Positions 1,098 to 18,987 are shown, counted from the first letter of the stretch. The stretch: 20,520 nt of DNA from Okeania sp. (GCF_035285525.1 NZ_JAYKGW010000046.1:1-20520); one strand, 5' to 3'. Numbers and translations: made by a program. Notes: a model not told the origin generated them from the sequence alone.

Positions 1098-1508
1098 GAT
1101 TTTACTAATTCTCCCACAATTTTTGCCACACTTTCCGAAGGAGATAGTTATTTACAATTAGATAATCAAGAATATCCCTTTAATAGTGGGTTAAACTTAG
1201 TCGCTCACCCGAAAGGAAAACCAGTTCAAAGATTAGCATCTATGTCTGGAGGAGAAAAATTTTTAACAGCTTTAAGCTTTATTTTTGCCCTCCAACGTTA
1301 TCGCCCATCTCCTTTTTATGCTTTTGATGAAGTAGATATGTTTTTAGATGGAGCGAATGTAGAGCGATTAGCTAAAATGATAAAACAACAAGCACAACTA
1401 GCTCAATTTATTGTAGTTACTCTGGGTCGGCCTATGATGGAAGCATCCGAACGTACTATTGGTGTTACTCAAGCAAGAGGCGCTCATACTCAAGTTTTAA
1501 GAATCTAA
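1098..1508 (+). pseudogene. smc: Chromosome segregation ATPase SMC, C-terminal head fragment only (5'-truncated; copy A)
   Basis: The frame of ORF 1242-1508 extends upstream. It reads ..[85 protein letters not shown]...[33 protein letters not shown]. The ABC signature (SGGEK), Walker B (FYAFDEVD) and D-loop are all present. A full SMC is about 1200 aa; here the upstream sequence is the divergent Rpn fragment. Confidence 0.85.
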
Positions 1509-2551: not shown

Positions 2552-2552
2552 T

Positions 2553-3554: not shown

Positions 3555-4108
3555 AAATGAAATTAATTGAAACCAAACTGACTGGATGCTATATTATCCA
3601 GCCCAGAGTTTTTCAAGATGAAAGAGGGAGTTTTGTCAAGACTTTTCATCAAGAAACATTTGAAAAATACAAATTAGAAACAAAATATGTTGAGGAAGTT
3701 TATTCTATTTCTCATCAAAATGTTTTAAGAGGTTTACATTTTCAAATACCACCTCACGATCATACTAAACTGGTTTATTGTCTTTTTGGTCGAGTAATTG
3801 ATGCTGTGGTAGATTTACGGGTAGGTTCGCCTACTTACGGACAATACGAAACCTTCGAGTTAAGCCAGGAAAATGCTCATATCTTATATATACCAACTGG
3901 TTTTGCTCATGGTTTCTATGCTACTAGCGAAAAAGCTATTCTGGTTTACAATCTTTCCAGCATTTATGCTCCTAACCACGATCGCGGAGTACGCTGGGAT
4001 TCCGTAGGAATATCTTGGCCTATTGGTGAGACTAACCCTATTATTTCCGAGCGCGATCGCGCATTTTTACCTTTTTCTGAGTTTGAAAGTCCCTTTATTT
4101 ATGAATAA
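3551..4108 (+). CDS. RmlC-like cupin, NDP-4-keto-6-deoxyhexose 3,5- (or mono-) epimerase
   Basis: [42 protein letters not shown] and IPTGFAHGF are RmlC-family hallmarks. The ATG overlaps the upstream stop (ATGA at 3551-3554), which implies translational coupling. Confidence 0.85.
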
Positions 4109-4109
4109 T

Positions 4110-4178
4110 AAATTGCTTTCAGAAACCCGGTTTAAATTGCTTTCAGAAACCCGGTTTCTCCAAGAAACCGGGTTTCTA
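4110..4178. repeat. Three copies of the GAAACCCGGTTTC palindromic element, including a 24-nt direct duplication AAATTGCTTTCAGAAACCCGGTTT x2
   Basis: Read directly. The duplicated units lie at 4110-4133 and 4134-4157, and a third palindrome at 4163-4178. The cluster sits in the 95-nt gap inside the sugar operon. Confidence 0.85.
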
Positions 4179-4203
4179 ACCACGTTATATTAATCATAAA
4201 TTA

Positions 4204-5118
4204 ATGAAAAAAACGGTTTTAGTTACAGGTGCAACAGGTTTCATCGGTAGTCAGTTAGTTAAACACCTACTTAAATATAATTATCAAGTTATTATTCTCA
4301 AGCGTAGTTTTTCTGACACCAAAAAGATTGAGGATTGCTTGTCAGAGATAACTGCTTATGACATAGATAAATGCAGCATAGAAAAACCCTTTCAAGACTT
4401 TGGAAAAATTGATGCAGTAGTTCACACAGCAACAGCTACTGGCCGCCGTCAAGAGAGTCTAATAGAAATATTTGAAACTAATACTGCATTTCCTTTAAAA
4501 TTGTTAAATGCAGCTAAACATTTCCAGACCAAAACTTTTATTAACACCGATACTTATGTAAATAAAATCAATCTTCCCTATCAAGAATTAGGGAGTTATT
4601 CTCTTTCTAAAAAGCATTTCCAACAGTGGGGAAAACAAATTGCTCTAGCTCATCAGATCGAGTTTTTTAATGTTAGATTAGAATACGTTTTTGGTGTAGC
4701 AGATTATCCTAACAAACTCATACCATTAGTAATTAAAAAAATTTTAAGCAATGCCTCTGAGGTAGAACTTACTTCAGGGGAACAGCAACGAGATTTTATT
4801 CATGTTGAGGATGTAGTTTCGGCCTATTATTTACTGTTGGAAAAAGAATCCGAACCGTCACAATATTATCAAGAATATGAAGTAGGAATGGGTAAAGCAA
4901 TTTCTTTGCGACAACTTATAGAAATGCTGAAAGAGCTTACAGAAGTTCAAACAGAATTAAAATTTGGAGCTTTACCTCAACGTTCAGGTGAAATTATGTT
5001 TTCTCAAGCTGATACTAAAGCTATGAAAAAAATTGGTTGGTATCCTGCTAAAAGTTTAAAAGAACGTTTAATGCAAACCATTGAAGGCGAAAAAACGCTA
5101 AAAGAGCAAGCAAGCTGA
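4204..5118 (+). CDS. NAD(P)-dependent SDR epimerase/reductase, probable NDP-4-ketohexose reductase
   Basis: A Rossmann motif VLVTGATGFIGSQLV and a YSLSK YxxxK motif are present. The 304-aa size and operon context fit the terminal 4-ketoreductase. Specificity cannot be read from the sequence. Confidence 0.7.
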   Translation: MKKTVLVTGATGFIGSQLVKHLLKYNYQVIILKRSFSDTKKIEDCLSEITAYDIDKCSIEKPFQDFGKIDAVVHTATATGRRQESLIEIFETNTAFPLKLLNAAKHFQTKTFINTDTYVNKINLPYQELGSYSLSKKHFQQWGKQIALAHQIEFFNVRLEYVFGVADYPNKLIPLVIKKILSNASEVELTSGEQQRDFIHVEDVVSAYYLLLEKESEPSQYYQEYEVGMGKAISLRQLIEMLKELTEVQTELKFGALPQRSGEIMFSQADTKAMKKIGWYPAKSLKERLMQTIEGEKTLKEQAS

Positions 5119-5186
5119 AGAAATTGCTATTTTTTACCAAATTACTTGTAAAATACTACCATAGTCCGATTTATTGAAAAAAACAA

Positions 5187-6503
5187 ATGACTCAATCAAC
5201 TTCTTACTCTAGAGAAATTACTAAATGCCGAGTTTGTGGCAACGAAAAACTTACCCCAGTTTTAAGTCTGGGGAGTCAACCCCTGAGCGGAGTTTTTCCA
5301 TCCGCTGACTCTCCCGATCCATCCACTTCTCCTTTAGATTTAGTAATTTGTGATGGTGATGAATCTGTCTGTCGAACCCTGCAACTCCAACACAGTGCTA
5401 ATGTATCGGAAATGTATGGTACTACCTACGGTTATCGTTCCTCAACCAGTCGGACAATGCGCAGTCACCTACAAGGTATTGTTACAGAAGTTTTGGAAAT
5501 GGTACAACCTAATCCTGGGGATTTGGTTTTAGACATTGGTTGCAATGATGGTACTTTGCTGAACTTTTATCGAGAACGCAACCTAACTCGCATAGGTATG
5601 GATCCCTCAAGTAAAAAATTCGCAGATAATTTTGATACAGATATTCAAGTTATCTATGATTTCTTTTCTGCTGATGGGGTGCGGGAAATGGTGGGCGATC
5701 GCAAATGTAAAATCGTTACTTCCATAGCCATGTTTTATGACTTGGAAGACCCAATAGACTTTATGAAGCAAATTCATTCTGTTTTAGCTCCAGATGGGGT
5801 TTGGGCGTTTGAACTTTCCTATATGCCGCTGATGTTGACCAATCTGACTTACGACCAGATTTGCCACGAACACTTAACTTACCTGGGTTTGCAGCAGATT
5901 CAATGGATGGCCGAACGGGCTGGCCTCAAAATACTTGATGTCAGTTTGAATTTTGTTAATGGTGGGAGTTTTCGGATTATAGCTGCCCACAAGGATAGTG
6001 CCATGAAGCCTAACTATGAGGTTATCAAAAAACTTCTTGATGCTGAAGCGCCCCTCGCAACAATGGCTCCTTTTGACCGATTCCGCAATCGGATTATTCA
6101 ACATCGCGATGAGGTAAGAGCATTTTTTGATACGATGCGTTCCTCTGGTAAGAAAGTTTATGGGTATGGAGCTTCGACTAAAGGAAATATTGTTTTGAAC
6201 TATTGTGGCATTACCCCAGAGGATTTAGTAGCTATTAGCGACCTGCAACCTCAAAAAGATGGTTTGCTTACGCCAGGAAGTCGTATTCCCATTATAACTC
6301 ACGAAAAGTTAAGGGAAGCACATCCAGATTATGCTATGGTATTGATTTGGCATTTGCGTCGGGAAGTGATTGAGGATGAGATTAACTACTTAGAAAAAGG
6401 AGGGAAGTTGGTATTCGATTTACCGCGTCCCCATACAGTTAATTTTGAAAACTATCAGCATTATTTGAATGCTTCCTTTGAAGACCTAGCATTTTCTTTG
6501 TAA
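5187..6503 (+). CDS. SAM-dependent NDP-hexose C-methyltransferase (TylC3/EvaC-type)
   Basis: It has an N-terminal Zn-ribbon CRVCGN...LSLGSQPLSG, a SAM motif VLDIGCNDGTLL, and a long C-terminal domain with GYGASTKGN. This three-part layout and the ~440-aa size match sugar 3-C-methyltransferases as I recall them. Confidence 0.75.
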   Translation: MTQSTSYSREITKCRVCGNEKLTPVLSLGSQPLSGVFPSADSPDPSTSPLDLVICDGDESVCRTLQLQHSANVSEMYGTTYGYRSSTSRTMRSHLQGIVTEVLEMVQPNPGDLVLDIGCNDGTLLNFYRERNLTRIGMDPSSKKFADNFDTDIQVIYDFFSADGVREMVGDRKCKIVTSIAMFYDLEDPIDFMKQIHSVLAPDGVWAFELSYMPLMLTNLTYDQICHEHLTYLGLQQIQWMAERAGLKILDVSLNFVNGGSFRIIAAHKDSAMKPNYEVIKKLLDAEAPLATMAPFDRFRNRIIQHRDEVRAFFDTMRSSGKKVYGYGASTKGNIVLNYCGITPEDLVAISDLQPQKDGLLTPGSRIPIITHEKLREAHPDYAMVLIWHLRREVIEDEINYLEKGGKLVFDLPRPHTVNFENYQHYLNASFEDLAFSL

Positions 6504-6508
6504 AACAT

Positions 6509-6550
6509 AACAGCAGCACCTATTTGTTACAAATAAGTGCTGCTGTTTTA
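6509..6550 (+). terminator. Probable intrinsic terminator of the sugar operon
   Basis: AACAGCAGCAC (6509-6519) pairs with GTGCTGCTGTT (6537-6547). The stem extends inward through TATTTG/CAAATA, and a T-run follows at 6545-6549. It starts 6 nt after the stop codon. Confidence 0.5.
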
Positions 6551-6577
6551 CAGCGGTTTTCATTTGAATAAACCACA

Positions 6578-6605
6578 GTAGGGACGTTGCATGCAACGTC
6601 CCTAC
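6578..6605. repeat. Perfect 28-bp palindrome GTAGGGACGTTGCATGCAACGTCCCTAC (small dispersed repeat)
   Basis: Perfect self-complementarity was checked by eye. A near-identical copy lies inside a CDS at 16011-16038, and a sibling with the same GTAGGG...CCCTAC ends lies at 17492-17519. Confidence 0.9.
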
Positions 6606-6660
6606 AGAATTATCGCTTTTTTCGTGTGGCTCATTGACCTGAAAGCGGCTGTATGCCCTT

Positions 6661-6683
6661 AGAACAGACATCTTGTCTGTTCT
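6661..6683 (-). terminator. 10-bp hairpin just downstream of the TPR-GT61 gene (possible terminator)
   Basis: AGAACAGACA-TCT-TGTCTGTTCT lies 11 nt beyond the stop at 6694. No clear U-tract follows on the minus strand. Confidence 0.3.
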
Positions 6684-6693
6684 GTGTAGGTTT

Positions 6694-9600
6694 TCATTCT
6701 GCCTCAAGTATTGTAGTAATAACTTTTTTCAACTTATTTATGTTCGTTTCCCAGCCATTAGCTGTTTTTTTACCTAATAGCAAGTACAAACTGTATTCAC
6801 TCCAAGCACACATCCTATAATTGTATGTACACGGAGAAGTACCCGGAGGCATTATTACGACAATAGTTGTATTTGGATGACACATAACCGAGTTGAGAAT
6901 ACCTGCACCGTGGGGGCTAACTACAAAAGAAGCATAATTCATTAGCATGGCTTTTTCTTCAAAACTCAACCTTTCGGCATAAACAATCGAAAATCCTAAG
7001 CTCGCCATCAACTCCTCTACTTCTGCTTCATTAGTCATTGCTCTGTTAGTGGAATGTTTTCTTGAAATATACACATAACGAGCGCGATATTCTGAGGGTA
7101 TATCGGAACGCTTTGCTACGATTGACTCTCTCAATTTTCTGTAAATATCAATTATCTCTGCATTGTGTTGATAGCAGCTAATTATGAAATATTTAAACTT
7201 CTGCTCTTGTTTCACCAAAATTCTCTCTCTTGGTATGTTCAAAGCATTAAAGATTTCCCAGTGGCTATCCATAATGTGGGGAACAAATATTTTACACGAT
7301 AAATTCAGTTTTTGATACAGAATCAAACTAGGAATTTGGTCGAACAGTAAATGACCGTAGTTCTGGTATGCACCCCAAATTCCCCAAACATTAGGTATGC
7401 CGAAAACTACTTCATCCTCGTAATAACTATCTAGTTTTTTTTGACTTATAGCAATTTCCTCAAAAAAGCCTCTAGAATCGAAAACTTTCATACTGTCTTT
7501 AGAACAAGCCTTGCTATAAATAATGTTTTGTTCAGAGTTTTCAGCCTTCTCACTGTCTAGTTCATGAATAAACTCTTGAGATACTAAACTGCAATAGTAA
7601 AACCAAGGTAGAATATATCCCTCAGAAATACCATAAGGAGGCTCGCAAATAAAATCCTTAAATATCTCTATAGTTTGCCTGCTTCTCAGCTTAAGCCAAC
7701 TTGCCAATTTCCCAACTTTAGCTGGAAAATACTCCTTTTCTTCATCCATTAACCCGGGTAAATATTTTACTGTAGCTTCTGTCTGAAATTTAGGCATCCA
7801 TTCGTCAGCACCTATTACATAGCGTGCTGACGATGATAAGCCCTCAAAACGCAACTCATTAATTAATGACAGTGGAATTTCTGTGCGAAGCAGCTTAACC
7901 TTTCTCCACTCGCTGCTATTTAATCTCTGGGATTCTTTTTCCAGGAGTTGAATAGCCATATTGAAGTGTTTTAAGACTAACAAATCCTGCTCTTTACAAT
8001 CCTCTTGAGTAGCAATAACTTGCGAAAACAATTCTTTTAATATCTTTAACTTCGGCAGCAACGAAGAAGCATCTTTAGCTACGGGTGCAGGATAATTCCT
8101 TCGATATAATAATATATTATCTGTTAACTGAGCTAAAGAAACAACATCCTTAGCACTATTCGGTTGTTTTGTAACCAGTCGGTCAAGTAACAAACCTAAT
8201 TCCTGAATAGAAGTTAAACCTGTCCCCAGTAGTTTAACCTCTGGATATAAACCCCGCTGCTGATGGAAACTTAAAATTTGCTCGTACTTCGCCTCAGCTT
8301 CAGTTTCGCGACCTAAATATTTTAATTCCGTTGCCGCCAGTATATAGGCATCAATAGCTTTTTGAGGATCGTAAGACTCGCTCGCTCGCTCAAACCTCTC
8401 CAAAGCTAACTCTCTATTTCCTTGTTGGCTTGCTAAAATTCCCCCTTGGAGCAAAACCGTTAAATTATTAGGATTTCTCTGCAAAGCCTCTCGGTATTTT
8501 GCCTCAGCCTCAACAAAACGCCCCATGGCCATCAATTCTTTAGCAGCCTCACAGTAGGCCGGAATATGCCCAGGGAACTTTTCCATAATTTGTTCAAACC
8601 TTTGCCAAGCAAATTTCCGATTTCCCAAATGCCTCGCTAGAGTAGCACTTTTGGACAATCCTTCATGGCGATGGGGATATTTAGCAATAACTTTTTTCCA
8701 CCAAGTTTCTGCTTCTTCATAACGAGACAGAATAGCTAGTGCATCCCCTTTTGGCAAATAAAAATTAAAATAGTTGGGAAACTTTTCTAAAGCATTTTCC
8801 CACCGTTGTAATGCCAACTCCCAATCTGGCAAGCTCTGAGCTACTCTAGCATAACCCTCATAACCATGATGCTGATTTGGATACTTTTCTATTAACTGTT
8901 GAAAAACCCCCTCTGCTTCTTTAAACCGAGATAAATTGATTAAAGCATTGCCTTTTCCAATTTGAAACCAGATATATTCGGGAAACTTAGCAATACCATC
9001 TGACCACCGCTTTAATGCCAACTCCCAATCAGCTAAATGATGACTTACCTTAGCATAACCCTCATAACCATGATGCTGATTTGGATACTTTTCTATTAAC
9101 TGTTGAAAAAACGCCTCTGCTTCTTTAAACCGAGATAAATTGATTAAAGCACTGCCTTTTTGGTGCTGAAAACTGATATATTGGGGAAACTTAATTGCTG
9201 CCTCCGACCACCGTATTAATGCCAATTCCCAATTACCTAAACTATGACTTACCTTGGCATAACCTTCATAACCATGAGGTTGATTTGGATACTTTTCTAT
9301 TAACTGTTGAAAAACCACTTCTGCTTCTTTAAATCTGCTTAAAGTAATTAAATTATTGCCACAATTACGATAAATAGACATCGGTTGTTGAGGGTTGAGA
9401 AATAATGCTTGTTGGTAAAACTCAACAGCTTCTTTTATCTTTCCTTCCTTATTTAACTTATCCCCATTATCCACAAAATTTTTAGCAATATCTGTTTGCA
9501 ACCAAGAGATTTTTTGAGTTGCCTTGAAGTGATTTGGATTAAGAGAAAGCACTTTTTGCCAAGTTGTTAATTCCTGCGCAAAATCCGATTTGGCTTCATA

Positions 9601-9942
9601 AACTAAAGCTAATGTTTGATAATAAATTGCCAAATTTGGTTCGAGAGAAATAGCTTTTTTTGAGGAATTAATTGCCCGATCTAATTCTCCTTGTTTGATT
9701 AATGCTTCGGCTAAACTATTATACAAGTTGGCAGAATTAGGATTAAGTTTAATAGCCTGTTGATATTGGGCTACGGCATCAGACCATTTTTGTTGTTGGA
9801 CAAACACTTGCCCCAAATAATAGTAATTCCAGGCAAAATTAGGTTTTTGATCTATGAGTTTCTGATATTCTTGGCACGCATCATCCAATCTACCCGCTTT
9901 TAATAGTTGATTAGCAGTTTTGAGAGAACTGGTATAAGCCAT
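6694..9942 (-). CDS. TPR-repeat protein fused to a C-terminal GT61/DUF563-type glycosyltransferase
   Basis: About 560 aa of TPR units at the N-terminus include three near-identical 68-aa double-TPR modules. The C-terminal ~300 aa carry YQNYGHLLFDQIPSL, RYVYISRK, NEAEVEEL and VVSPHGAGILNSV. These correspond to the NYxHW, YxSR and HGAG(L)xN motifs of DUF563/GT61. I saw no hydrophobic membrane-span-like run. Confidence 0.75.
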   Translation of the reverse strand: MAYTSSLKTANQLLKAGRLDDACQEYQKLIDQKPNFAWNYYYLGQVFVQQQKWSDAVAQYQQAIKLNPNSANLYNSLAEALIKQGELDRAINSSKKAISLEPNLAIYYQTLALVYEAKSDFAQELTTWQKVLSLNPNHFKATQKISWLQTDIAKNFVDNGDKLNKEGKIKEAVEFYQQALFLNPQQPMSIYRNCGNNLITLSRFKEAEVVFQQLIEKYPNQPHGYEGYAKVSHSLGNWELALIRWSEAAIKFPQYISFQHQKGSALINLSRFKEAEAFFQQLIEKYPNQHHGYEGYAKVSHHLADWELALKRWSDGIAKFPEYIWFQIGKGNALINLSRFKEAEGVFQQLIEKYPNQHHGYEGYARVAQSLPDWELALQRWENALEKFPNYFNFYLPKGDALAILSRYEEAETWWKKVIAKYPHRHEGLSKSATLARHLGNRKFAWQRFEQIMEKFPGHIPAYCEAAKELMAMGRFVEAEAKYREALQRNPNNLTVLLQGGILASQQGNRELALERFERASESYDPQKAIDAYILAATELKYLGRETEAEAKYEQILSFHQQRGLYPEVKLLGTGLTSIQELGLLLDRLVTKQPNSAKDVVSLAQLTDNILLYRRNYPAPVAKDASSLLPKLKILKELFSQVIATQEDCKEQDLLVLKHFNMAIQLLEKESQRLNSSEWRKVKLLRTEIPLSLINELRFEGLSSSARYVIGADEWMPKFQTEATVKYLPGLMDEEKEYFPAKVGKLASWLKLRSRQTIEIFKDFICEPPYGISEGYILPWFYYCSLVSQEFIHELDSEKAENSEQNIIYSKACSKDSMKVFDSRGFFEEIAISQKKLDSYYEDEVVFGIPNVWGIWGAYQNYGHLLFDQIPSLILYQKLNLSCKIFVPHIMDSHWEIFNALNIPRERILVKQEQKFKYFIISCYQHNAEIIDIYRKLRESIVAKRSDIPSEYRARYVYISRKHSTNRAMTNEAEVEELMASLGFSIVYAERLSFEEKAMLMNYASFVVSPHGAGILNSVMCHPNTTIVVIMPPGTSPCTYNYRMCAWSEYSLYLLLGKKTANGWETNINKLKKVITTILEAE
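8725..9336 (-). repeat. Three tandem 204-bp near-identical repeats inside the CDS (each is two TPRs, RFKEAE..FQQLIEKYPNQ.HGYEGYAKVSH...ALINLS)
   Basis: The string ATAACC(C/T)TCATAACCATGA recurs at 8851, 9055 and 9259, exactly 204 nt apart. The protein units start at aa 203, 271 and 339. Confidence 0.9.
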
Positions 9943-10097
9943 GAATTTTTTAGAAGTTTGAGTGTAATATTATGTTAGGATAATCACTTATAAGTATACT
10001 TTTTATTTGTAGTCGGGCTAAATCCCTAATTTTAGATAAGTTTTCAGCCTTAATACGAGCTTCAATTATAATAAGTATTTAACCAAATATGATATAA

Positions 10098-10259
10098 CTT
10101 TGCAAGTTATTGTTTTTAGTCTACCAGATTTTGATTTTATACTATGTGAACAATCCAGAATTAACTTTGAAAAAAGTGTTTGAATTTTTAGGCAAGGAAT
10201 ATAATCAGAAAGTTATAGAATTTTATTGGATAGAAAACGCTGGTATAGTATATTCCTAA
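10098..10259 (+). pseudogene. Relic of a sulfotransferase C-terminus
   Basis: The frame reads ..ILILYYVNNPELTLKKVFEFLGKEYNQKVIEFYW..*. This resembles the conserved (V/L)RYEDLVxxPExTLxKVCEFLGxxF...M tail of Sulfotransfer-family enzymes. Only about 50 codons remain, with no start codon, and the relic is on the strand opposite its neighbours. Confidence 0.4.
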
Positions 10260-10283
10260 AACACCTAATCTTTGCATATGCTA

Positions 10284-11243
10284 TCATACAAGTAGCAGAT
10301 TTTCTATTAGCTGACTCAAATCATTTGTATCAACTTGAATGTTACGGCTGTTTGAATTTCTTTCATCCCTCTCGCTAAAATTTCCTACTAAAAATCTGTA
10401 CTCACACCCAACGTGTTTTGCTATTTGGTAAAATAAGCTGCTTATATAACAGGGAGCAAAAATTTCTAAGACCTTTGTTTTCGGATTACAAAAAGCCAGG
10501 TTAGTCAGTCCAGCACCATGGGGTGCAAGGACAAAAGAAGCATTCGGCATTAACTTTACCTGGGAATCAAAGGCTATTTTTTCAAATTCATACGTTATAA
10601 AACCATATTTTTTGAGAATTAATTCAACCTCAGCAGCATTTTCAATTGCTCTCAATCCCCTACTTTTCCTACTTATATAAATACGTTTCTCTTCTTCACT
10701 ATTTTTTTCAATTTTAGCAAGAAAAGAATTACGAAGAAATTCAACCATCCATTGACTGACTTGATGATTTCCCGTTCTTCTTTCCGAAGGGATGCTCAGT
10801 CGCTCGGCTGAAAGCATCATTCCAGGTTCGGCTATAAGCACTTGGGCTTCATTAATGCCAAGAGCAGAAATAACTTTTTGTCCATACTTGGAATTAATCT
10901 TAGGAAAAATTATATAGTCTAATTCTTCTAAGTTTCCAAGTGCTTTGATTCGCGAAACACAATCAATCATCCAATGAAAATAGTTGTTAGTACCTGCAAG
11001 TTGAGATGCTAATACACCTACCGAACCTGATATATGATTCTGAGCTTGAGTAGAAGACTCATCAATCCAAAAATTACAGTCGTCTTCAAATGATATAGAA
11101 CAGCATTCATAAGTATCACAGTAGTGAAAAGGTTCATTCTTGTAATATCCCAGAATTGAGATAGTATTGTCAATATCCTGACTGATGCCGATGGGAGACT
11201 CGTATCCCCAGGAATAGGCATCCGATACAATTTTTCTCTTCAT
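10284..11243 (-). CDS. GT61/DUF563-type glycosyltransferase (stand-alone)
   Basis: NNYFHWMIDCVSRI, RIYISRKSRGLRAIENAAEVE and VLAPHGAGLTNLAFCNPKTKVLEI are the family motifs. It is a paralogue of the C-terminal domain of the 6694-9942 product. Confidence 0.8.
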   Translation of the reverse strand: MKRKIVSDAYSWGYESPIGISQDIDNTISILGYYKNEPFHYCDTYECCSISFEDDCNFWIDESSTQAQNHISGSVGVLASQLAGTNNYFHWMIDCVSRIKALGNLEELDYIIFPKINSKYGQKVISALGINEAQVLIAEPGMMLSAERLSIPSERRTGNHQVSQWMVEFLRNSFLAKIEKNSEEEKRIYISRKSRGLRAIENAAEVELILKKYGFITYEFEKIAFDSQVKLMPNASFVLAPHGAGLTNLAFCNPKTKVLEIFAPCYISSLFYQIAKHVGCEYRFLVGNFSERDERNSNSRNIQVDTNDLSQLIENLLLV

Positions 11244-11336
11244 TTTATATTGATACCTTAATTAATTTCAAATGTTTAGTTCTTAGTTGCCTGCAACATA
11301 TAGCTCTATAAATTCATACATCAGTTTTGTCCACAA

Positions 11337-14219
11337 TTATTTAGAAAAGCCAGACATTTTTGCATAAAGAACCTGATAACCAAATAGTTCAACAACCTTA
11401 AACGTTGTTGCTAAGGGAGATATATCTGCCAAAACATAATTAAAAAATGTTTGGTAGTATTCTTGGCGGCATAAGTAAAGTTTATTATTTCCATAGCAGA
11501 AAGGTGCCAAACCCTGACTAGAATTAGAGCCAAAATAAGTAACTACACCCTCCATTACTCCAGGCCAGCGTAGATTAACAAAATCATCGACAATAATAAT
11601 ACCACCATCTGATAGAGTTTCTTGAGCAAGGGCCAAGTCGTTCAGAACATGGTTGACTGTGTTACCACCATCTACACTAAACAATCGTGCATATTTTCCT
11701 TCTGATAAAGTCAAAATTTCACCAGGGGTAAGCAACAGAGAATCAGAACTTAAGATTCTCAACTGCTTTTCGTTGTCTATCCATTGGTTAAAGTTTTTGG
11801 TAAATTGAAGGCTATCTCCTTTACCAGAATTATCAATATTGGCACTTTGATTTTCAAAACAATCAATAGCAATTAAAGGACTTTCAGAATCTACCATCAT
11901 TGCTAAAGCTATAAATAGCCTACCATGATGAACGCCAATTTCACAAACGCTACCAGATAAACTATGAACATTTTGAAAATGAGCCAACATACTTATGGTT
12001 AATAAAGCCCCATCCTCGACCCATCCAGGTACTTTCTTATGTCCGTCCTCGACAACATAAGACTCGTAGGATTTATGGGGCATAGAAGAAATAGCATATT
12101 TTGGGGAAGAATCTGGTATGCTATCAGACTGAATACCAAAATTTTTTGATATATCTTTGGGAGATGAACCTCTAAGTGGTACTGAATTATAATCGATTTC
12201 TTCTAGTCCTAAAGAGTCAAAATCATCTCTCTTTAAAACCAGAGAAAGAAATTCAGCAGTGCGTAAACCTTCTTTCTCCAAACTATAATTTTCAACCGTA
12301 CTTTTTGCATTAGCAAGATGGGTTTGAAAAGAATCAGGTTTAGTTATAAAGCTTTCTAAAGCTTCCACAATTTCTTGTTGATTCAAAGGATTGATAAGCA
12401 AGCAATTATAGTTATGCTTGGCATATTGGGTAATGCCACCTTCCCGCGTCAGAACCGGGAAAACTCCACAGGCCATTGCCTCTAAACCAGGTCTGCCAAA
12501 CCCTTGAAAAGTTGAGCAGTCTAGCAAAATGCTTGACTCATTTAGGGCGCGAGCAACATCTTCCATTCGGGTTAAAAGACCATAATCTTTACAAGGAAAC
12601 GGCAACTTTGTCATATCATAGCCAAAACCATAGAGCGCTAAAATTACATGAGGGTAACGACGATGGATTTCAGCATAGACAGAGATGACCATTTCAAAAT
12701 TACGTCTTTCTGACTGTGGGCGACCCAGGGCAATTATCTGTAGTTTGCGTTCAGTATTAGTGTTGTGGAAATAGTCCAGATTCAGACCTAGAGGGATACG
12801 GTGAACTTTGCCCGGGAACTCCTCCATTTTACACTTTAGCCATCTCGTTTTGACAATTTTATCTGGGATCATATAATAGGTTTGTTCTGCCGCTTTTTGC
12901 AGGTTTTTGTAGTTATCGTTATAAAAGTCAGGTTCATAATCCTGGACGAAATAGCAAAGGCGCAGATTGGCTCGTTTTTTCTGGAGAAGATAAGCAGGAT
13001 AAACCGTACTCCAGTGAGTCGCAACTATCAGGTCACAGTCTGGAAACTCAGCTACCATTTCTTCCATGCTAGAAAATCTAAAAGGATTAAAAAACATAGG
13101 AAATAGTTGTAGTACCTGCTCATCAACTTCCCCATAAGTAGCAATATTAGCATCAAAACCATTAATAATAAGTTGGTTGACAATCTGCAAAACAGATATA
13201 ATGCCACCATACACTTTGAGTGCTGGCAGAATATATAATATTCTTGGGCTGTCATTATTTACTAATGCTTGCCCTTTTGGAGTAATGGGTAGCGGTAGTT
13301 GCTCCGATAGCTTTAGGGCTTCAATTTCTGCACCGACTGACCTCTTGTCAATAGGGTACTTACACGCCTGGGAACTAGCATCCTTAAAGGCCGAATTTCG
13401 GCACAGTAGGTCAGGATACTTTTTTTTGTCCTCAATAACTGCACGTTCCATATAGCTGATTGGATTATGTGAACGCCATTGTTTTTGATAAGCTTCGTAA
13501 TCTTTAGACCACCGTTCCATAAATATCCCTTTGTTGTGCTTCATATTAAAATCGCGACCTGATTCCAAAAAGCTACCCCATCCATGGTGATAAACAAACA
13601 AGGTTTCATCGACAACAACTCGAAGATTACGACTAAGAACTTTCATGCAAAAATCTGCTTCTTCCCAATAACCACGACCATATACTGGGTCAAATCCACC
13701 CAAATCCTGGAATATTTCACGACGCACAGCGAAAAAGAACCCGGAGGCATTGTTTATGTCAGAAAGTCTGTTTTGAGATATCTGCTCTAGCTGTTTTTGT
13801 AGTGAGTGTATATTATGACCAGGAGGAATAGTCCAGCATATTCGAGTCCAGTTTGCCCAATTTGATACAGCCGTTAATACCCCGATTGTAGGATCGGTAT
13901 CAAAGGCATCCGCAACTTTTTCTAAAAATCTTTCAGGAACACAAGCATCAGAGTTAACAAAGACAATATAAGGATTTGTCCCTGTCATGCCACCACGATT
14001 AGCAGAATATAAGTAACCTTTATTATTTTCGTTTACCAGCAATTTTACCTTTGGGCTATTTTTGTTGGCAACTAACTCAAGCTGAGTTCTTACATAGTTA
14101 TTACAGCCGTCATCAACAATATAAAGTTGATAGGGAAGACTTCCAGACTTAAGTATACTATTCAAGCAACTCCGAGCATGGTGGATGGCCTGATAAACAG
14201 GTACTACAATATCGAACAT
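11337..14219 (-). CDS. Trifunctional GT2 - GT4 - class I SAM methyltransferase fusion protein
   Basis: Residues 1-260 have FDIVVPVY..YIVDDGCNN..NKGY..FVNSDA..EEADFC (GT-A, GT2). Residues ~325-660 have PRILYILPALKVYGGIISV...FQGFGRPGLEAMACGVFPVLTREGG (GT-B, GT4). Residues ~735-960 have VPGWV..GSVCEIGVHHGR...FSVDGGNT...LSDGGIIIVDDF (Methyltransf_24-like). The start lies 20 nt downstream of the preceding gene's stop. Confidence 0.75.
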   Translation of the reverse strand: MFDIVVPVYQAIHHARSCLNSILKSGSLPYQLYIVDDGCNNYVRTQLELVANKNSPKVKLLVNENNKGYLYSANRGGMTGTNPYIVFVNSDACVPERFLEKVADAFDTDPTIGVLTAVSNWANWTRICWTIPPGHNIHSLQKQLEQISQNRLSDINNASGFFFAVRREIFQDLGGFDPVYGRGYWEEADFCMKVLSRNLRVVVDETLFVYHHGWGSFLESGRDFNMKHNKGIFMERWSKDYEAYQKQWRSHNPISYMERAVIEDKKKYPDLLCRNSAFKDASSQACKYPIDKRSVGAEIEALKLSEQLPLPITPKGQALVNNDSPRILYILPALKVYGGIISVLQIVNQLIINGFDANIATYGEVDEQVLQLFPMFFNPFRFSSMEEMVAEFPDCDLIVATHWSTVYPAYLLQKKRANLRLCYFVQDYEPDFYNDNYKNLQKAAEQTYYMIPDKIVKTRWLKCKMEEFPGKVHRIPLGLNLDYFHNTNTERKLQIIALGRPQSERRNFEMVISVYAEIHRRYPHVILALYGFGYDMTKLPFPCKDYGLLTRMEDVARALNESSILLDCSTFQGFGRPGLEAMACGVFPVLTREGGITQYAKHNYNCLLINPLNQQEIVEALESFITKPDSFQTHLANAKSTVENYSLEKEGLRTAEFLSLVLKRDDFDSLGLEEIDYNSVPLRGSSPKDISKNFGIQSDSIPDSSPKYAISSMPHKSYESYVVEDGHKKVPGWVEDGALLTISMLAHFQNVHSLSGSVCEIGVHHGRLFIALAMMVDSESPLIAIDCFENQSANIDNSGKGDSLQFTKNFNQWIDNEKQLRILSSDSLLLTPGEILTLSEGKYARLFSVDGGNTVNHVLNDLALAQETLSDGGIIIVDDFVNLRWPGVMEGVVTYFGSNSSQGLAPFCYGNNKLYLCRQEYYQTFFNYVLADISPLATTFKVVELFGYQVLYAKMSGFSK

Positions 14220-14239
14220 AATTATTTTTGTGGTTGTTT

Positions 14240-16519
14240 TTAGAGGTTAGATACTTTTTTATAGAGATTTATGTACCGATCGGCTATTGTCGTAACTGCA
14301 TGTTTTTCACAGAAAACTCGACACATATATTTGTAGTGATCGGGATAAGGGGATAGCATTACGCTTTTGATTGCATCTAAAAGTGAATCTCGCTCTCTAT
14401 GTTTATACAAAAATCCTGTGTTATCTTGTTCTACATACTCTCTAAGTAAACCAATGTCTGGAACAATTACAGGAGTTTGATAAGATATTGACAAAATCAC
14501 TGAACTAGAAACCCATATATCCTGAAATGAGAAGATAGAGGCATCCAATGAAGAAATCCAAGCTGACATCTCATCGAAGGGAATTTTTCCTGGTTGGAGT
14601 AAAACATTATTTGGCAGATTAGCCTTTAACTTATCAACATAAGTCTGCGATCCTGGATTCCCAGCAATGATTAACTTTGGTGTAGGCTTTTCGTCTGTCA
14701 ACTTTGCAAAAGTTTCTATCTGAAATTCTAAGCCTTTGTAAGGCTTAATCTCTCCAATGCTACCAAATAAGAAACCATCAGTCTCAAGTCCCAGACGACG
14801 GCGTGCTCCAGTTTTTGGTAATAAGTCCCCATAAACCAAATCGAAAGCAGGATGGGGAATTACAGTAATTTTATCAGGAGGACATACCGAAGAGAGTATT
14901 TTCTTTGCCCCATAACCCAAAACAATCACTCGATCGACTATATCTAGAACCTTTTGTTGGAGTTCAATATCGACAGATGCAAACTGGCGATCGTGAGGAA
15001 GAGGGTTATGTTTAGTCCAGACAATCTTACCACCCTCTTTTTTGATATTTCCTAGGAAGTCAAGCAATGACTTAGCACGTTGACGTATGCTTGATTCTGC
15101 CTTATCACCAGGGTGATAGAGAGGATCGAGCTGATGAAAATGGATAACAGTAGGTTTCGGCATTGCCAGACAGGATTTGATGACATCATCTCGGTTCGTA
15201 GTGAAACGAAAATTAATGTCAGAGTGCTTCATAACTTCTGTGGGGATTATCGTGTAAAAAGGATTGCGAGTTTTTTCTGGCGTAAACTGTAAAACATTAA
15301 CAGTAACAACCCTAGAATTATTTTTACTAGAAATAGAAACTCTTGGCCATTCTTTATTATGAGTGTCTGGGTTCAGAGCGATCGCCTTCCCATAAACCTC
15401 AACCGCCTCTTCCTTTTTCCCCAACTCCTTCAACACATCTCCCAACTGCTGCCAAACCACAGCGGACTTAGGATACAACTCCACAGACTTCCTTAACTCA
15501 ATCTCCGCTTCACTCCAATATCCCAACCGCATCAAAGCATACCCCAACTGATACCTCACCACGGCAGACTTCGGATTAACCTCTAGCACTAACCGATACT
15601 CAACCACTGCTTCTTCCCATCTTCCCAACTGCGTATGAGCATACCCCAAATCATGCCTTACCTCGGCTTTCTCAAAACCCAAATCAATAGCCTTTTTATA
15701 CTCACCAACTGCCTCTGACCATCTACCCAACTGCCCTAAAGCCTGACCTAAACCAAAGAATACTTCACCAGAAACAATTGACAAAACCACCACACTATGG
15801 TAAGTATCTACCGCTTCTGACCACCGTCCCAACTTACCCAAAGCTTTGGCCAAACCAACACCACAGTCTACCCTACTCGAATCAATATCCCAACTCTGCT
15901 GATAAAACTCCACTGCCTCCGACCATTGTTGTTGTCCTGACTTAGCTTCTGCCCAATAATAATAAATATCTGGTAAGTAGGGAGTAGGGGGTAGGGAATA
16001 GGAAGTAGGGGGTAGGGACGTTGCATGCAATGTCCCTACAGGATTAGGGTGCAACGTCCCTACAGGATTAGGGTGCAATGTCCCTACAGGATTAGGGTGA
16101 GGAGATTGAGAATCTAAAGAAAACTGAATCATTTGATCAAGACAGTCCTCTACCTCTGACCATTTTCCCAACTTCAGCAACGCACTGGCCAAATCTAGAT
16201 AAAAATTACACACATCTTTTCTTATTTCTAGCGCTCGGCGAAAATAATCTACGGCCTCGGTCAATTGGCCTTGCTTGCTCAACATTCTCCCCAAATAATT
16301 TAAAAGCAAAGGATTCTGGGGATTTATGGCCACTGCTTGACGTAAAGCAGCGATCGCCTCATCTATGCGTCCCACCTGTTCCAGCACTTTGGCCAAATTT
16401 TCGTAAGAGCAAGTAAACTGAGGATTTGCTTGTATGGACTTTTGATAACAAGCGATCGCTTCCCCTAGTTTTCCTTCTTGAAAAAGTTGATTTCCTCTAG
16501 CAAAAGCGGTAACACCCAT
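14240..16519 (-). CDS. TPR-repeat protein fused to a C-terminal GT-B fold (GT4/GT1-like) glycosyltransferase
   Basis: About 10 TPR units (LG(R/K)WSEAV pattern) in the N-terminal ~390 aa are interrupted by a repeat-derived insert. The C-terminal ~360 aa have HFHQLDPLY.., WTKHN.., GSIGEIKPYKG.., and a distal D/E-rich nucleotide-sugar lobe. The family call is the weaker part of this assignment. Confidence 0.65.
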   Translation of the reverse strand: MGVTAFARGNQLFQEGKLGEAIACYQKSIQANPQFTCSYENLAKVLEQVGRIDEAIAALRQAVAINPQNPLLLNYLGRMLSKQGQLTEAVDYFRRALEIRKDVCNFYLDLASALLKLGKWSEVEDCLDQMIQFSLDSQSPHPNPVGTLHPNPVGTLHPNPVGTLHATSLPPTSYSLPPTPYLPDIYYYWAEAKSGQQQWSEAVEFYQQSWDIDSSRVDCGVGLAKALGKLGRWSEAVDTYHSVVVLSIVSGEVFFGLGQALGQLGRWSEAVGEYKKAIDLGFEKAEVRHDLGYAHTQLGRWEEAVVEYRLVLEVNPKSAVVRYQLGYALMRLGYWSEAEIELRKSVELYPKSAVVWQQLGDVLKELGKKEEAVEVYGKAIALNPDTHNKEWPRVSISSKNNSRVVTVNVLQFTPEKTRNPFYTIIPTEVMKHSDINFRFTTNRDDVIKSCLAMPKPTVIHFHQLDPLYHPGDKAESSIRQRAKSLLDFLGNIKKEGGKIVWTKHNPLPHDRQFASVDIELQQKVLDIVDRVIVLGYGAKKILSSVCPPDKITVIPHPAFDLVYGDLLPKTGARRRLGLETDGFLFGSIGEIKPYKGLEFQIETFAKLTDEKPTPKLIIAGNPGSQTYVDKLKANLPNNVLLQPGKIPFDEMSAWISSLDASIFSFQDIWVSSSVILSISYQTPVIVPDIGLLREYVEQDNTGFLYKHRERDSLLDAIKSVMLSPYPDHYKYMCRVFCEKHAVTTIADRYINLYKKVSNL
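15976..16102. repeat. Composite repeat inside the CDS: six heptamers (GTAGGGR), a 28-bp palindrome, and three 24-bp tandem units
   Basis: The heptamers span 15976-16017 (42 nt). The palindrome GTAGGGACGTTGCATGCAATGTCCCTAC lies at 16011-16038. GTCCCTACAGGATTAGGGTGCAAY x3 spans 16031-16102. The translation is SPHPNPVGTLHPNPVGTLHPNPVGTLHATSLPPTSYSLPPTPYLP. Confidence 0.9.
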
Positions 16520-16526
16520 ATTAGTT

Positions 16527-16559
16527 CTTAGTTGTATATTAATCTTAGTTGTATATTAA
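16527..16559. repeat. Tandem 16-nt direct repeat CTTAGTTGTATATTAA x2, just upstream of the 16519 start codon
   Basis: The copies lie at 16527-16542 and 16544-16559, separated by 1 nt. On the minus strand this sits 8-40 nt 5' of the ATG. Confidence 0.8.
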
Positions 16560-16785
16560 GTAGGATAATAGCTTTAATAAGTATGCAGTATAAATTAAGA
16601 GTTTCACAAAAATTACTTATTTAGTGGAGTTATCTTTAATATACCAAATCCGATTATTAAAACCTACTTTCTCCAAATCATTCTTAACCTTTTGCCTCCT
16701 CTTTCCTATGTCCTGCCTTAAACTTCTGAAAAACATCCTATAGAAGCTATTTGGTATCTTTGTAAAAGTGCGAGTTTTTGGTATC

Positions 16786-16818
<33 letters not shown>

Positions 16819-17181
16819 GGGAGAAATAAAATAGGGAAAAAAGTAGAAAAATACCTTGATATACCCACACGAACTACACGAACCACAGGAACCACCCTCC
16901 CCATCTATTAAAAAAAATAGATACCAACCAAATGGGTTCTATATATAAAGCTCTACTATTAATTCAGTTATTAGCAGTTAGCTGGCTGTTTTCTGCCATT
17001 AATTTAGTCGTCTGTGAAGATGACCTCAGCTATGAGCCAAGTATTTTAATCTTTGGCGGTCTTTAATTCAGTTATCAGTTATGGGAAGTTAATTGCCAGT
17101 TTCCAGCAAAACATTAACAAGACTTACGAAGAACCACTTTATTAAGACTTAGGCAAACTTGTAGATAAACCTTATTTGTAA

Positions 17182-17353
17182 GGGGCCAATGTAGAGCGAT
17201 TACCTAAAATGATTAAACAATAGGCACTGGCAAGCTTAGTTTATGTTTATTGTAGTTAGTCTGGGTCGGCCAATAATAGAATAGTCCGGAGGTAGCATCA
17301 ATGTTACCCAAGCTAGAGGCGCTCATACCCAAGTTTTACGGATTAAAATATAA
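17182..17353 (+). pseudogene. smc: Decayed duplicate of the smc 3' end (copy B)
   Basis: It aligns by eye to 1358-1508. The reading is [39 protein letters not shown], against copy [42 protein letters not shown]. In-frame TAG codons fall at 17221 and 17282. There is also a ~9-nt insertion and a frameshift. Confidence 0.8.
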
Positions 17354-17711: not shown

Positions 17712-18773
17712 ATGACATCTGAAAAAATCCGCCAACGCTCGGAACTATTAGGAACTCAAGTAATTACTCGTGATAAGGGTAAGCGCCTGGGAGTAGTCAG
17801 CCAGTTATGGGTAGATGTGGATCGGCGGGAAGTGGTAGCTGTGGGACTACGGGACAATATATTAGCAGTAGCTGGAATACCCAAGTTTATGTTTCTGAAA
17901 GAGGTCCGTGAAATAGGTGACGTTATCTTAGTCGATGATGAAGAAATAATAGAAGAAGAAATTGATACGGAAGCTTATAGCAGCTTAATAAATAGTGAGG
18001 TTTTGACAGAAAATGGGGAATTATTAGGCCGAGTTAGGGGCTTCAAATTTGATACCAGAGATGGTAAAGTGGTGTCTTTGATTATCGCTTCTATTGGTAT
18101 ACCCCAAATTCCAGACCAATTTATCAGTACCTATGAACTATCAATTGATGAAATTGTCAGTAGTGGGCCAGATCGTCTAATTGTGTTTGAAGGTTCTGAA
18201 GAAAAATTACAGCAGTTAACGGTAGGAGTATTAGAACGTTTGGGTTTAGGGGAAGCTCCTTGGCAAAAAGAGGAGGACGGATTATATTATCCTCCTACTG
18301 TTAATCCTGGTAATCAATTAGGTACAGGACAACCAGTTAGTAGTGAACCTATTCGTACAGTAAAACCTTCTATTCAGGAAAAATGGGATGAAGACTGGGC
18401 GGAACCTGAGCCAGTTTATCGTGATTATTATGAAGAAGAAGTTGCTCCTTCTCCACGGCAATTAGAACGAGAAGCAGTTTATGATGATTATTATGAGTCA
18501 GAACCTATAGCTCCACCACCAGTAAAGCAGGTAAGACCAGAACCTGTTAAGGAGGATTACTATGAGGAAGATAATTGGGGGGACTCAGATGATGGGTATG
18601 ATGATTATGAAGAGGATAAGAGTCAGCCGAAAGAGTATCAAGCAACTTTAGAGTATCAATATGATGAGGAGATCGAGAAGGATGCTTGGGCTGATGATGA
18701 GGCTCCTAAACCTTATCAACCAACTCCTGTAAATATTCCTCAGAAAACTAAGGTGCCAGAATATGAGGAGTAA
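17712..18773 (+). CDS. PRC-barrel domain protein with an acidic Tyr/Pro-rich C-terminal tail
   Basis: Two PRC-barrel-like modules are present: SELLGTQVITRDKGKRLGVVSQLWVDVDRREVVAV and LINSEVLTENGELLGRVRGFKFDTRDGKVVSLI. The last ~150 aa are low complexity with three DYYE(E/S)E motifs. Confidence 0.7.
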   Translation: MTSEKIRQRSELLGTQVITRDKGKRLGVVSQLWVDVDRREVVAVGLRDNILAVAGIPKFMFLKEVREIGDVILVDDEEIIEEEIDTEAYSSLINSEVLTENGELLGRVRGFKFDTRDGKVVSLIIASIGIPQIPDQFISTYELSIDEIVSSGPDRLIVFEGSEEKLQQLTVGVLERLGLGEAPWQKEEDGLYYPPTVNPGNQLGTGQPVSSEPIRTVKPSIQEKWDEDWAEPEPVYRDYYEEEVAPSPRQLEREAVYDDYYESEPIAPPPVKQVRPEPVKEDYYEEDNWGDSDDGYDDYEEDKSQPKEYQATLEYQYDEEIEKDAWADDEAPKPYQPTPVNIPQKTKVPEYEE

Positions 18774-18818
18774 TTAATAATTGATAATTGATAATTGATA
18801 ATTAATTATTAATTATTC
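18771..18818. repeat. AT-rich heptamer array (AATTGAT / AATTATT units)
   Basis: Read directly. The array begins at the TAA stop of the PRC-barrel gene. Confidence 0.8.
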
Positions 18819-18837
18819 ATATAGCCTTTTCCTTTGT

Positions 18838-18910: not shown

Positions 18911-18945
18911 CAAGAGGGACATTCCACGTCTTTATTATCCATTAA

Positions 18946-18987
18946 TAATTATTAATTATTAATTATTAATTATTAATTATTAATTAT
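18946..18987. repeat. (TAATTAT)x6 heptamer array overlapping the 3' end of the response-regulator CDS
   Basis: I counted six exact units. The stop codon (18973-18975) and the last four codons (I-I-N-N) are encoded by the array. Confidence 0.9.

Follow-up and report, generated by a model that had tools for sequence, protein, structure and literature searches.

Two converging operons, one for glycosyltransferases (GTs) and one for the synthesis of a nucleotide sugar, were analysed in a DNA stretch of 20,520 bases from the marine, filamentous cyanobacterium Okeania sp. This stretch, called the window here, is the entire contig of a fragmented metagenome-assembled genome (MAG), and the absence of a gene from it covers 20.5 kb only. 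It contains 12 open reading frames (ORFs) of at least 100 aa. Four of them, named D, C, B and A in the order of transcription, lie co-oriented and head to tail on the minus strand, and they converge on five plus-strand genes at 1775-6503:

1775-2551, plus strand: glucose-1-phosphate cytidylyltransferase (RfbF; NCBIfam equivalog, 339 bits against a cut-off of 300)
2553-3554, plus strand: short-chain dehydrogenase/reductase (SDR) closest to CDP-glucose 4,6-dehydratase, below the NCBIfam cut-off
3551-4108, plus strand: RmlC-fold epimerase (NCBIfam rmlC, 189 against a cut-off of 156)
4204-5118, plus strand: SDR reductase (Pfam)
5187-6503, plus strand: sugar 3-C-methyltransferase (Methyltransf_13, Methyltransf_23 and Methyltransf_14 all present in Pfam)
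6509-6684, no strand: hairpins between the convergent operons (hairpin scan), including one copy of GTAGGGACGTTGCATGCAACGTCCCTAC at 6578-6605
6694-9942, minus strand: gene A, 1082 aa; tetratricopeptide repeat (TPR) array, helical linker and GT61 domain (Pfam, AlphaFold2)
10284-11243, minus strand: gene B, 319 aa; stand-alone GT61 (DUF563), domain at nt 10467-10982 (Pfam)
11337-14219, minus strand: gene C, 960 aa; GT2, WsaF-like GT4 and Methyltransf_24 domains (Pfam)
14240-16519, minus strand: gene D, 759 aa; TPR and Glycos_transf_1 (GT4), first gene of the operon (Pfam, AlphaFold2)

The gaps between the minus-strand genes are 20 bp (D-C), 93 bp (C-B) and 341 bp (B-A), and because of the last one gene A may have its own promoter. 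The hairpins between the two operons are likely bidirectional terminators. Promoter and terminator scans of the window were at background (32 observed where 33.6 were expected, and 8 where 7.9 were), and are therefore uninformative on the operon structure, the hairpins at 6509-6684 excepted. In total the minus-strand operon encodes five GT domains, one methyltransferase domain and two TPR arrays. This layout, with both arrays at the N-termini, had been read by an initial annotation from the sequence alone, and it was confirmed by Pfam and by the AlphaFold2 models.

The protein of gene D has a TPR match with an E-value of 7e-55 and Glycos_transf_1 at aa 573-727. Its AlphaFold2 model, with a predicted local distance difference test score (pLDDT) of 81, has TPR blocks at aa 1-136 and 214-388 with a 75-aa disordered insert between them, and a confident GT-B domain at aa 404-759 (nt 14243-15310), which resembles MshA and GlgM in Foldseek. 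With the whole chain SPINDLY and OGT come out on top at the architecture level only (TM score ~0.27, root mean square deviation ~30 A), and the capsule polymerase Cps3D (8qoy) is also among the matches. As protein OGTs and a capsule polymerase are both architecture-level matches of the predicted model, this comparison cannot separate the hypotheses weighed below. We propose that D is an adaptor or backbone transferase. The disordered insert (aa 138-214), which splits the TPR array, consists of a run of AGTAGGG heptamers at 15976-16018 and of the palindrome GTAGGGACGTTGCATGCAACGTCCCTAC, present as three in-frame 24-bp tandem units (16012-16094) that encode HPNPVGTL three times. A small mobile repeat thus appears to be tolerated within the coding region of D.

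Gene C combines Glycos_transf_2 at aa 4-173, with Glyco_tranf_2_3 extending to aa 210 (GT2, nt 13590-14210), WsaF_N/Glycos_transf_1 at aa 383-643 (nt 12291-13073; WsaF_N at the gathering score, 27.0) and Methyltransf_24 at aa 759-880 (nt 11580-11945), whose S-adenosylmethionine motif (EIGVHHG) is intact. Residues of catalytic type are invariant across 29 sequences, including D37, N89-S90-D91 and E580, and the interdomain linkers are Ser/Pro-rich. Neither the Methyltransf_24 domain nor full-length C retrieved anything informative in PDB sequence searches. The protein is proposed to be a two-module polymerase with a fused O-methyltransferase, which may terminate or decorate the chain, two roles that the sequence does not distinguish.

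Both A and B belong to CAZy family GT61 (Glyco_transf_61) by score and by conserved motifs: B matches with an E-value of 1e-29 (104 bits against a cut-off of 27), and A at aa 862-1028 (nt 6859-7359) with an E-value of 6e-24 (85 bits against the same cut-off). They have the GT61 core alone in common, with 40% identity over 97 residues. B keeps the PHGAG motif and an invariant H90, and there is a weak GT61 match to POMGNT2 structures (E-value 0.004). The array of A has 16 TPRs at aa 1-563 (nt 8254-9942), with TPR families matching at E-values down to 1e-40. The AlphaFold2 model gives 32 confident helices over this part and is poor in the GT61 half (pLDDT <50). We propose that A is the transferase for the CDP-derived sugar and B a side-chain transferase. 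Within the array of A three tandem 204-bp units (68 aa, two TPRs each) lie at 8708-9319, and because they are 73-76% identical to the first, tandem duplication is indicated to have expanded the array recently.

None of A to D has a predicted transmembrane segment by hydropathy scan, in line with the initial annotation, and inspection shows no signal-like sequence at any N-terminus. The Kyte-Doolittle scan over 19 residues exceeded 1.6 only once in C and once in D, within a Rossmann beta-alpha element and a TPR helix. The families of exporters, Wzx/Wzy, flippases and priming transferases have no Pfam match in any window ORF of at least 100 aa. The window also has no glycoside hydrolase (Pfam) and no nonulosonic-acid genes, and no candidate gene for an acceptor protein lies inside the island. 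A flagellin gene was found neither in the window (Pfam) nor in any fetched locus (flagellin search). Okeania and its relatives make glycosylated macrolides; natural-product glycosylation was considered and rejected, as the window has no polyketide synthase, nonribosomal peptide synthetase or GT1-type transferase and its GTs are of polysaccharide type. The priming gene wecA lies outside classical O-antigen loci. The lack of export and priming genes, on which the initial annotation had built its case for a cytoplasmic system, holds for the window but is weak evidence, because the contig is 20.5 kb long and because exopolysaccharide (EPS) genes are reported as scattered in cyanobacteria, which encode all three export pathway types (PMC4594306).

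The plus-strand operon is predicted to make a CDP-6-deoxy-3-C-methylhexose, whose stereochemistry the sequence does not fix. RfbF passes its equivalog cut-off, and the product of 5187-6503 is a full-length homologue of MycC3, TcaB9 and KijD1 (4rv9/TcaB9, E-value 7e-61 over aa 8-425) and belongs to the NDP-hexose 3-C-methyltransferase class of TylC3/TcaB9/MycC3 type. In the PDB search the best solved relative of the epimerase is 5buv, ahead of dTDP-rhamnose epimerases. The unusual CDP-sugar that the initial annotation had attributed to these genes is hence well founded, as is its link to the TPR-GT61 gene, which is kept in another Okeania genome, Okeania sp. SIO3I5 (locus L004 in our numbering). 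The CDP-sugar operon of that locus (12479-17073) has a DegT/E1-type enzyme in the place of the 3-C-methyltransferase, and for this reason the donor sugar seems to vary among strains while the transferase is kept. We know of no report of a 6-deoxy-3-C-methylhexose in cyanobacterial glycans, and the predicted CDP-3-C-methyl sugar is undescribed in cyanobacteria as far as the searchable literature shows.

The core of the GT operon belongs to a module that occurs beside polysaccharide exporters in other phyla. We collected 92 homologues of C, most of which are GT2-GT4 proteins of ~650 aa. The gene pair D then C is kept in seven independent loci across phyla (L001, L003, L007, L024, L038, L086 and L087), where the gene directly ahead of the C homologue encodes a homologue of the GT4 domain of D. 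GT4-domain homologues of D with 41-42% identity adjoin C homologues in wzm/wzt loci. The position of the methyltransferase shifts among these loci. The D homologue starts with Methyltransf_24 in place of the TPR array in L007, L038 and L087, and Methyltransf_24 is a separate gene in L003. In the window and in L001, the cyanobacterial version (79% identity), the methyltransferase stands at the C-terminus of C and the TPR array at the N-terminus of D. Because the pair is kept in seven loci while Methyltransf_24 changes its place, we read Methyltransf_24, GT4 and GT2-GT4 as one ancient, mobile module that was reshuffled in the window.

The three closest non-cyanobacterial C homologues all have genes of ABC2_membrane/ABC_tran type within 10 kb. 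The nearest named relative of C, in a Hyphomonadaceae locus (L003, 57% identity), stands with large GTs and a 527-aa GT4; there an ABC_tran gene lies beside a 259-aa gene with no Pfam match, and searches for Wzm matched this 259-aa type in other loci. Within 8 kb, L086 (53%) has an ABC2_membrane gene, a Wzt with Wzt_C and a Methyltransf_24 gene. In L087 (50%) a Methyltransf_24-GT4 protein and the C homologue are followed by ABC2_membrane and ABC_tran. We then scanned one genome per species for transporters, in loci of at least 15 kb holding a C relative (n=54). An adjacent wzm/wzt pair was found in 26 of the 54, with a chance rate that we estimate at ~1% for a stretch of 20 kb, and in L086, L087 and L050 Pfam bore out the call of a pair. 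The last, from a Synechococcus MAG, has wzm/wzt together with a C relative of sulfotransferase-GT2-GT4 type, a GT4-GT4 protein, a sulfotransferase and a methyltransferase. In roughly half of the C-relative loci no wzm/wzt lies within 10 kb. The initial annotation had named homologous clusters in ABC-transporter loci as an observation that would speak against a cytoplasmic system. Such clusters do occur outside cyanobacteria, and none is among the TPR-bearing, probably cyanobacterial loci.

Relatives of the linker and GT61 part of A are few. This part gave 18 word-indexed matches, and those of them that carry a name belong to Okeania, Arthrospira and Dapis. Only eight A-like representatives were found at E<=1e-30 among 1.84 billion proteins, where the GT61 core has 9288 matches at E<=0.001. 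In L004 the A orthologue again converges on the CDP-sugar operon, its neighbours being a TPR-GT4 protein of 1291 aa and a pair of sulfotransferases, of which one is TPR-fused; in Dapis it adjoins radical-SAM and methyltransferase genes. The architecture of an N-terminal TPR array and a C-terminal GT61 was seen in 20 of the 96 GT61 ORFs from a metagenome GT61 scan and the loci fetched by then. These fusions are often tandem paralogues (2-3), and several of the best metagenome matches of B (L088, L090, L091 and L092) fall within TPR-GT61 proteins. The TPR-GT61 loci are rich in HIP1 (GCGATCGC), which has seven copies in the window at 37% GC, and because of this most of them are probably cyanobacterial.

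Many neighbours of the TPR-GT61 genes are themselves TPR fusions. TPR proteins were excluded from the Pfam census of GT61 neighbourhoods, as redundant TPR families had swamped the unfiltered census. The neighbours include TPR-sulfotransferases (6 cases), a NodB-type TPR-polysaccharide deacetylase, a TPR-GT10 fucosyltransferase, a TPR-Methyltransf_24 and multi-GT2 proteins. Sulfotransferases, NodB-type deacetylases, GT10 fucosyltransferases and Methyltransf_24 are families that act on carbohydrate acceptors. Islands in which most enzymes carry an N-terminal TPR array are L088, L090, L091, L097, L101, L102, L105, L112 and L116, along with L004 (8471-9787). In L105 the TPR-GT61 genes are paired with a stand-alone 319-aa GT61, as A and B are in the window. 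In L092 (8945-11607), an orphan TPR-GT61 gene of 622 aa lies immediately before one for a 239-aa protein with S-layer homology (SLH) domains, among housekeeping neighbours (Hsp70, ABC importer); the two could be an enzyme-client pair. The recurrence of N-terminal TPR plus GT61 in probable cyanobacteria is mildly novel. We found no description of this architecture, or of islands with TPR on every enzyme, in the searched literature; to this extent the initial annotation was right to call the combination undescribed, whereas a new cytoplasmic glycosylation system is not supported.

The operon shares features with several known systems. The ABC-transporter scheme for O-polysaccharides has a soluble multi-GT polymerase and a methyl-type terminator, and the carbohydrate-binding module of Wzt recognises the terminal group (PMC11231755). 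As in the polymerase-terminator systems of E. coli O8/O9a (WbdA-WbdD) and K. pneumoniae O12 (WbbB), O4 and O7, the window encodes a soluble multi-GT polymerase together with a methyl-type modifier in one locus or one polypeptide, and each linkage would have a GT module of its own (GT2 and GT4 in C, three more in A, B and D). The priming enzyme of these systems is encoded outside the locus. The window differs from them in its GT61 modules, in its CDP-linked branched sugar donor, and in having N-terminal TPR arrays instead of wzm/wzt and a detectable coiled-coil ruler. The multi-domain GT-methyltransferases WsaE and WsaF of Geobacillus stearothermophilus make methylated 6-deoxyhexose polymers that are exported by Wzm/Wzt and then transferred to protein. 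The likeness to WsaF lies in the GT4 domain of C and is a weak domain match, and the WsaE/WsaF system is Gram-positive and uses dTDP-rhamnose, unlike the CDP-sugar of the window.

TPR arrays are documented on cytoplasmic enzymes of both polysaccharide and protein glycosylation. They are fused to the capsule polymerases Cps3D and Cps7D and to TviD and VexE, with roles in dimerisation, processivity, membrane association and partner binding (PMC11666461; PMC8760489), and the Klebsiella O4 terminator is reported to have a TPR-like bundle. These group 2 and Vi capsule enzymes share with the window a TPR array on a cytoplasmic polysaccharide enzyme; their catalytic domains are TagF-like or GT-B polymerases or an SGNH acetyltransferase rather than GT4 or GT61, and their loci carry kps or vex export genes while the window has no exporter. 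They also make it unsafe to conclude from a TPR array on a GT that the target is a protein, which the initial annotation had done. Nor is GT61 tied to protein targets, because bacterial GT61 genes are reported in kps capsule loci, and we found GT61 genes without TPR directly beside wzm/wzt in L136, L157 and L163. FlmG, with an N-terminal TPR and a C-terminal GT-B (PMC7591256), OGT and SPINDLY resemble A and D in that a TPR superhelix precedes a C-terminal transferase (of GT-B type in D) in a cytoplasmic protein with no membrane segment. But the window genes sit in a multi-GT, sugar-synthesis operon, and OGT and SPINDLY are GT41 enzymes while D is GT4 and A is GT61; Pfam gave no Glyco_transf_41 match in A or D. 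FlmG was compared by architecture and description only, and its link to flagellin and nonulosonic acid has no counterpart in the window. It is reported as confined to Caulobacterales. Cyanobacteria are not known to have flagella.

A cluster of Synechocystis PCC 6803 (slr0977-slr1610), also cyanobacterial, has by annotation the same donor-sugar gene set as the window at 1775-6503. Its rfbF, rfbG, rfbC and C-3 methyltransferase share the cluster with kpsM/wzm and kpsT/wzt (PMC3769361), and mutants of it are changed in EPS, which they lose, but not in lipopolysaccharide (LPS), while PilA shifts from ~22 to 17 kDa with altered glycosylation (PMC3769361; PMC7885315). Pilin glycosylation is changed in the kpsM mutant. 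In Synechocystis the transporter genes belong to the operon itself, unlike in the window, and no TPR-glycosyltransferases are reported from that cluster, whereas the window has them plus an extra SDR reductase.

We consider it probable, with moderate confidence, that 1775-16519 is a horizontally acquired island for a lipid-linked surface glycan, which is exported, probably by an ABC transporter. What was observed directly is which domains the proteins contain, their homology and synteny, and the association of their homologues with transporters. An exported surface glycan is favoured because the D/C core is homologous to the machinery of exported glycans and because the TPR enzymes of the sister islands are of carbohydrate-tailoring types; the arguments from the missing exporter, from the missing priming enzyme and from TPR as a mark of protein targets each have a documented ordinary explanation. 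The exported glycan may still end on protein, as the analogy with Synechocystis PilA hints.

The acceptor, the linkage roles, the sugar stereochemistry, the function of the TPR arrays and the export route in Okeania are what we infer in the following scheme. The plus-strand operon would convert glucose-1-phosphate to CDP-6-deoxy-3-C-methylhexose. The minus-strand operon would supply peripheral enzymes at the cytoplasmic face that build the glycan on a lipid carrier, with the priming transferase encoded elsewhere. D (GT4) and C (GT2 and GT4) would form the conserved backbone or polymerase module, and the Methyltransf_24 domain of C would O-methylate the chain, possibly as a terminator. The GT61 enzymes A and B might add further residues, A probably the CDP-derived sugar. 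The TPR arrays could be cyanobacterial add-ons, probably for docking or scaffolding and possibly spacing, that hold soluble enzymes at the membrane as in Cps3D and TviD. Export might use an unlinked transporter, most likely an ABC-2 pair of Wzm/Wzt (KpsM/KpsT) type, and the chain might end up as O-antigen, as EPS or as polysaccharide of the sheath; attachment to a pilin or to an S-layer protein after export is a further possibility.

Several observations weigh against such an exported glycan. Neither the 20.5-kb contig nor the HIP1-rich TPR-GT loci have wzm/wzt: in 18 TPR-bearing HIP1-rich stretches covering ~240 kb (the window, L001, L004, L005 and 14 TPR-GT61 metagenome loci), no wzm/wzt pair, MOP flippase or priming transferase was found. 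A coiled-coil molecular ruler was seen neither in the models of A and D nor in the linkers of C; the two models have no helices longer than ~25 residues, a result obtained without a dedicated coiled-coil predictor. At the architecture level, the whole chain of D is matched best in fold by the protein glycosyltransferases SPINDLY and OGT. Orphan TPR-GT61 genes (~590-620 aa) stand among unrelated genes in L092, L110 and L117, and they fit a protein-directed enzyme better. Finally, the homology of the Synechocystis and window sugar genes rests on annotation, not on sequence comparison.

An alternative hypothesis could be that the system glycosylates protein in the cytoplasm, with the arrays of A and D binding a client on which the five GTs and the methyltransferase assemble a short O-glycan that is methylated, either ahead of secretion or for a function inside the cell, as with FlmG, OGT and SPINDLY. 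We regard this as unlikely. The combination of TPR and GT-B does match OGT and SPINDLY at the whole-chain level and FlmG as described (PMC7591256), and a cytoplasmic TPR-GT41 enzyme (Ogt) glycosylates pilin in cyanobacteria (PMC9306852). No exporter, priming transferase or transmembrane segment was seen in any TPR-GT locus examined, and one of the three orphan TPR-GT61 genes lies directly upstream of the SLH-domain protein. Multi-enzyme cytoplasmic protein glycosylation also has a precedent in the serine-rich-repeat adhesins. However, the catalytic domains are GT4, GT2 and GT61 and not GT41, and D and C are homologous to genes of wzm/wzt loci, in which the D homologue has a methyltransferase instead of the TPR array. 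The island has no acceptor gene, its PRC-barrel neighbour is not Ser/Thr-rich, and no fetched locus has a flagellin gene. The TPR-fused enzymes of the sister islands are of glycan-tailoring types, and TPR on polysaccharide enzymes is well documented. The beside-wzm/wzt position of the module homologues likewise leaves the proposal of the initial annotation, a system acting on a cytoplasmic protein or making an intracellular glycan, without support. We also considered an undescribed class of cyanobacterial glycan assembly lines in which TPR arrays on GT61, GT4, sulfotransferase, NodB-type deacetylase, GT10 and Methyltransf_24 enzymes recruit all of them to a common client, for example a pilin, S-layer/SLH or RTX-type protein, in the cytoplasm and without lipid carrier or exporter, and in which the Okeania operon performs a multi-step, TPR-addressed protein glycosylation with the rare CDP-3-C-methyl-6-deoxyhexose. 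This, too, we regard as unlikely.

The island could instead supply the GTs and the donor sugar for the repeat unit of a lipid-linked surface polysaccharide that follows a Wzx/Wzy or a synthase/secretin route, which we find quite improbable. This route would suit L038 (50% identity), which has a MatE/MurJ-like protein with eight transmembrane segments and no wzm/wzt in its 16 kb, and L007 (41%), where a protein with 12 transmembrane segments and no Pfam match lies directly downstream of the pair. It would also suit the half of the C-relative loci without a nearby wzm/wzt and the presence of all three pathway types in cyanobacteria (PMC4594306). But multi-GT proteins fused to a methyltransferase are a hallmark of processive polymerisation and termination in the cytoplasm (PMC11231755), the closest long loci (L003, L086 and L087) all have wzm/wzt, and in Synechocystis the sugar operon annotated with the same genes also contains kpsM/kpsT (PMC3769361). 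A polysaccharide that is methylated and kept in the cytoplasm, like the mycobacterial 3-O-methylmannose (MMP) or 6-O-methylglucose (MGLP) polysaccharides, is very improbable, even though all the enzymes are soluble, the putative polymerase has a methyltransferase fused to it and an exporter is absent from the window. The mycobacterial clusters are expected to be compact and apart from exporters, with a GT, methyltransferases and a hydrolase (a glycoside hydrolase in the MMP four-gene system), whereas the window has no glycoside hydrolase and the homologues of its GT4/GT2-GT4/Methyltransf_24 module lie beside ABC exporters in other phyla, once with Wzt_C. A rare branched deoxy-sugar donor and a repeat-flanked island are moreover typical of variable surface antigens.

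If the exported surface glycan is the right reading, the locus adds to the variable surface-glycan islands and is of value chiefly for annotation, and the lack of transporter or priming genes in a cyanobacterial glycan cluster is no reason to call it cytoplasmic. The TPR fusions on GT61, sulfotransferase, deacetylase, fucosyltransferase and methyltransferase suggest a phylum-specific organisation of soluble glycan enzymes. We speculate that the arrays might address the enzymes to the plasma membrane rather than to the thylakoids. This organisation bears on the assembly of sulfated and methylated cyanobacterial exopolysaccharides.

Both operons are bracketed by direct repeats of ~165 bp, 81-83% identical and 15.8 kb apart:

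1343-1504, plus strand: left direct repeat, inside an 88-aa ORF (1242-1508) that is the C-terminal end of an SMC protein
17175-17343, plus strand: right direct repeat, no longer coding

The smc repeats noted in the initial annotation are hence real, with the 3' end of smc in the left copy. The ORF at 1242-1508 matches SMC_N at positions 137-218 of 220 (E-value 3.5e-29), and the window has no intact smc gene. It looks as if the island was inserted at the smc 3' end and later rearranged, and the direct repeats suggest its acquisition. The patchy GC content of the window (0.32-0.45) and the Hyphomonadaceae relative of C are compatible with acquisition and do not establish it.

Across a 1.2-kb spacer, and divergent from the GT operon, lies a gene for a PRC-barrel protein (17712-18773), which has a long acidic Tyr/Pro/Glu tail with DDYYEE-like units. 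This neighbour was considered as the glycan acceptor, which is unsupported: the tail is acidic and rich in Tyr/Pro/Glu, not Ser/Thr-rich, and nothing was found that links the protein to the operon. A 36-bp palindromic repeat with G/C runs (CCCCCCTTACAAAGGGGGGTTGGGGGGGATTCTAAG) occurs five times at 19256-19431, inside a response-regulator/GAF gene (ORF 18973-20109), in the part that joins the receiver domain to the GAF domain. Tandem repeats of heptanucleotides, perfect or nearly so, such as TCAGTTA, CATTATC, GGAGTCA and TAATTAA, are numerous in intergenic DNA, at 710-748, 771-804, 16786-16818, 18771-18821 and 18934-18987.

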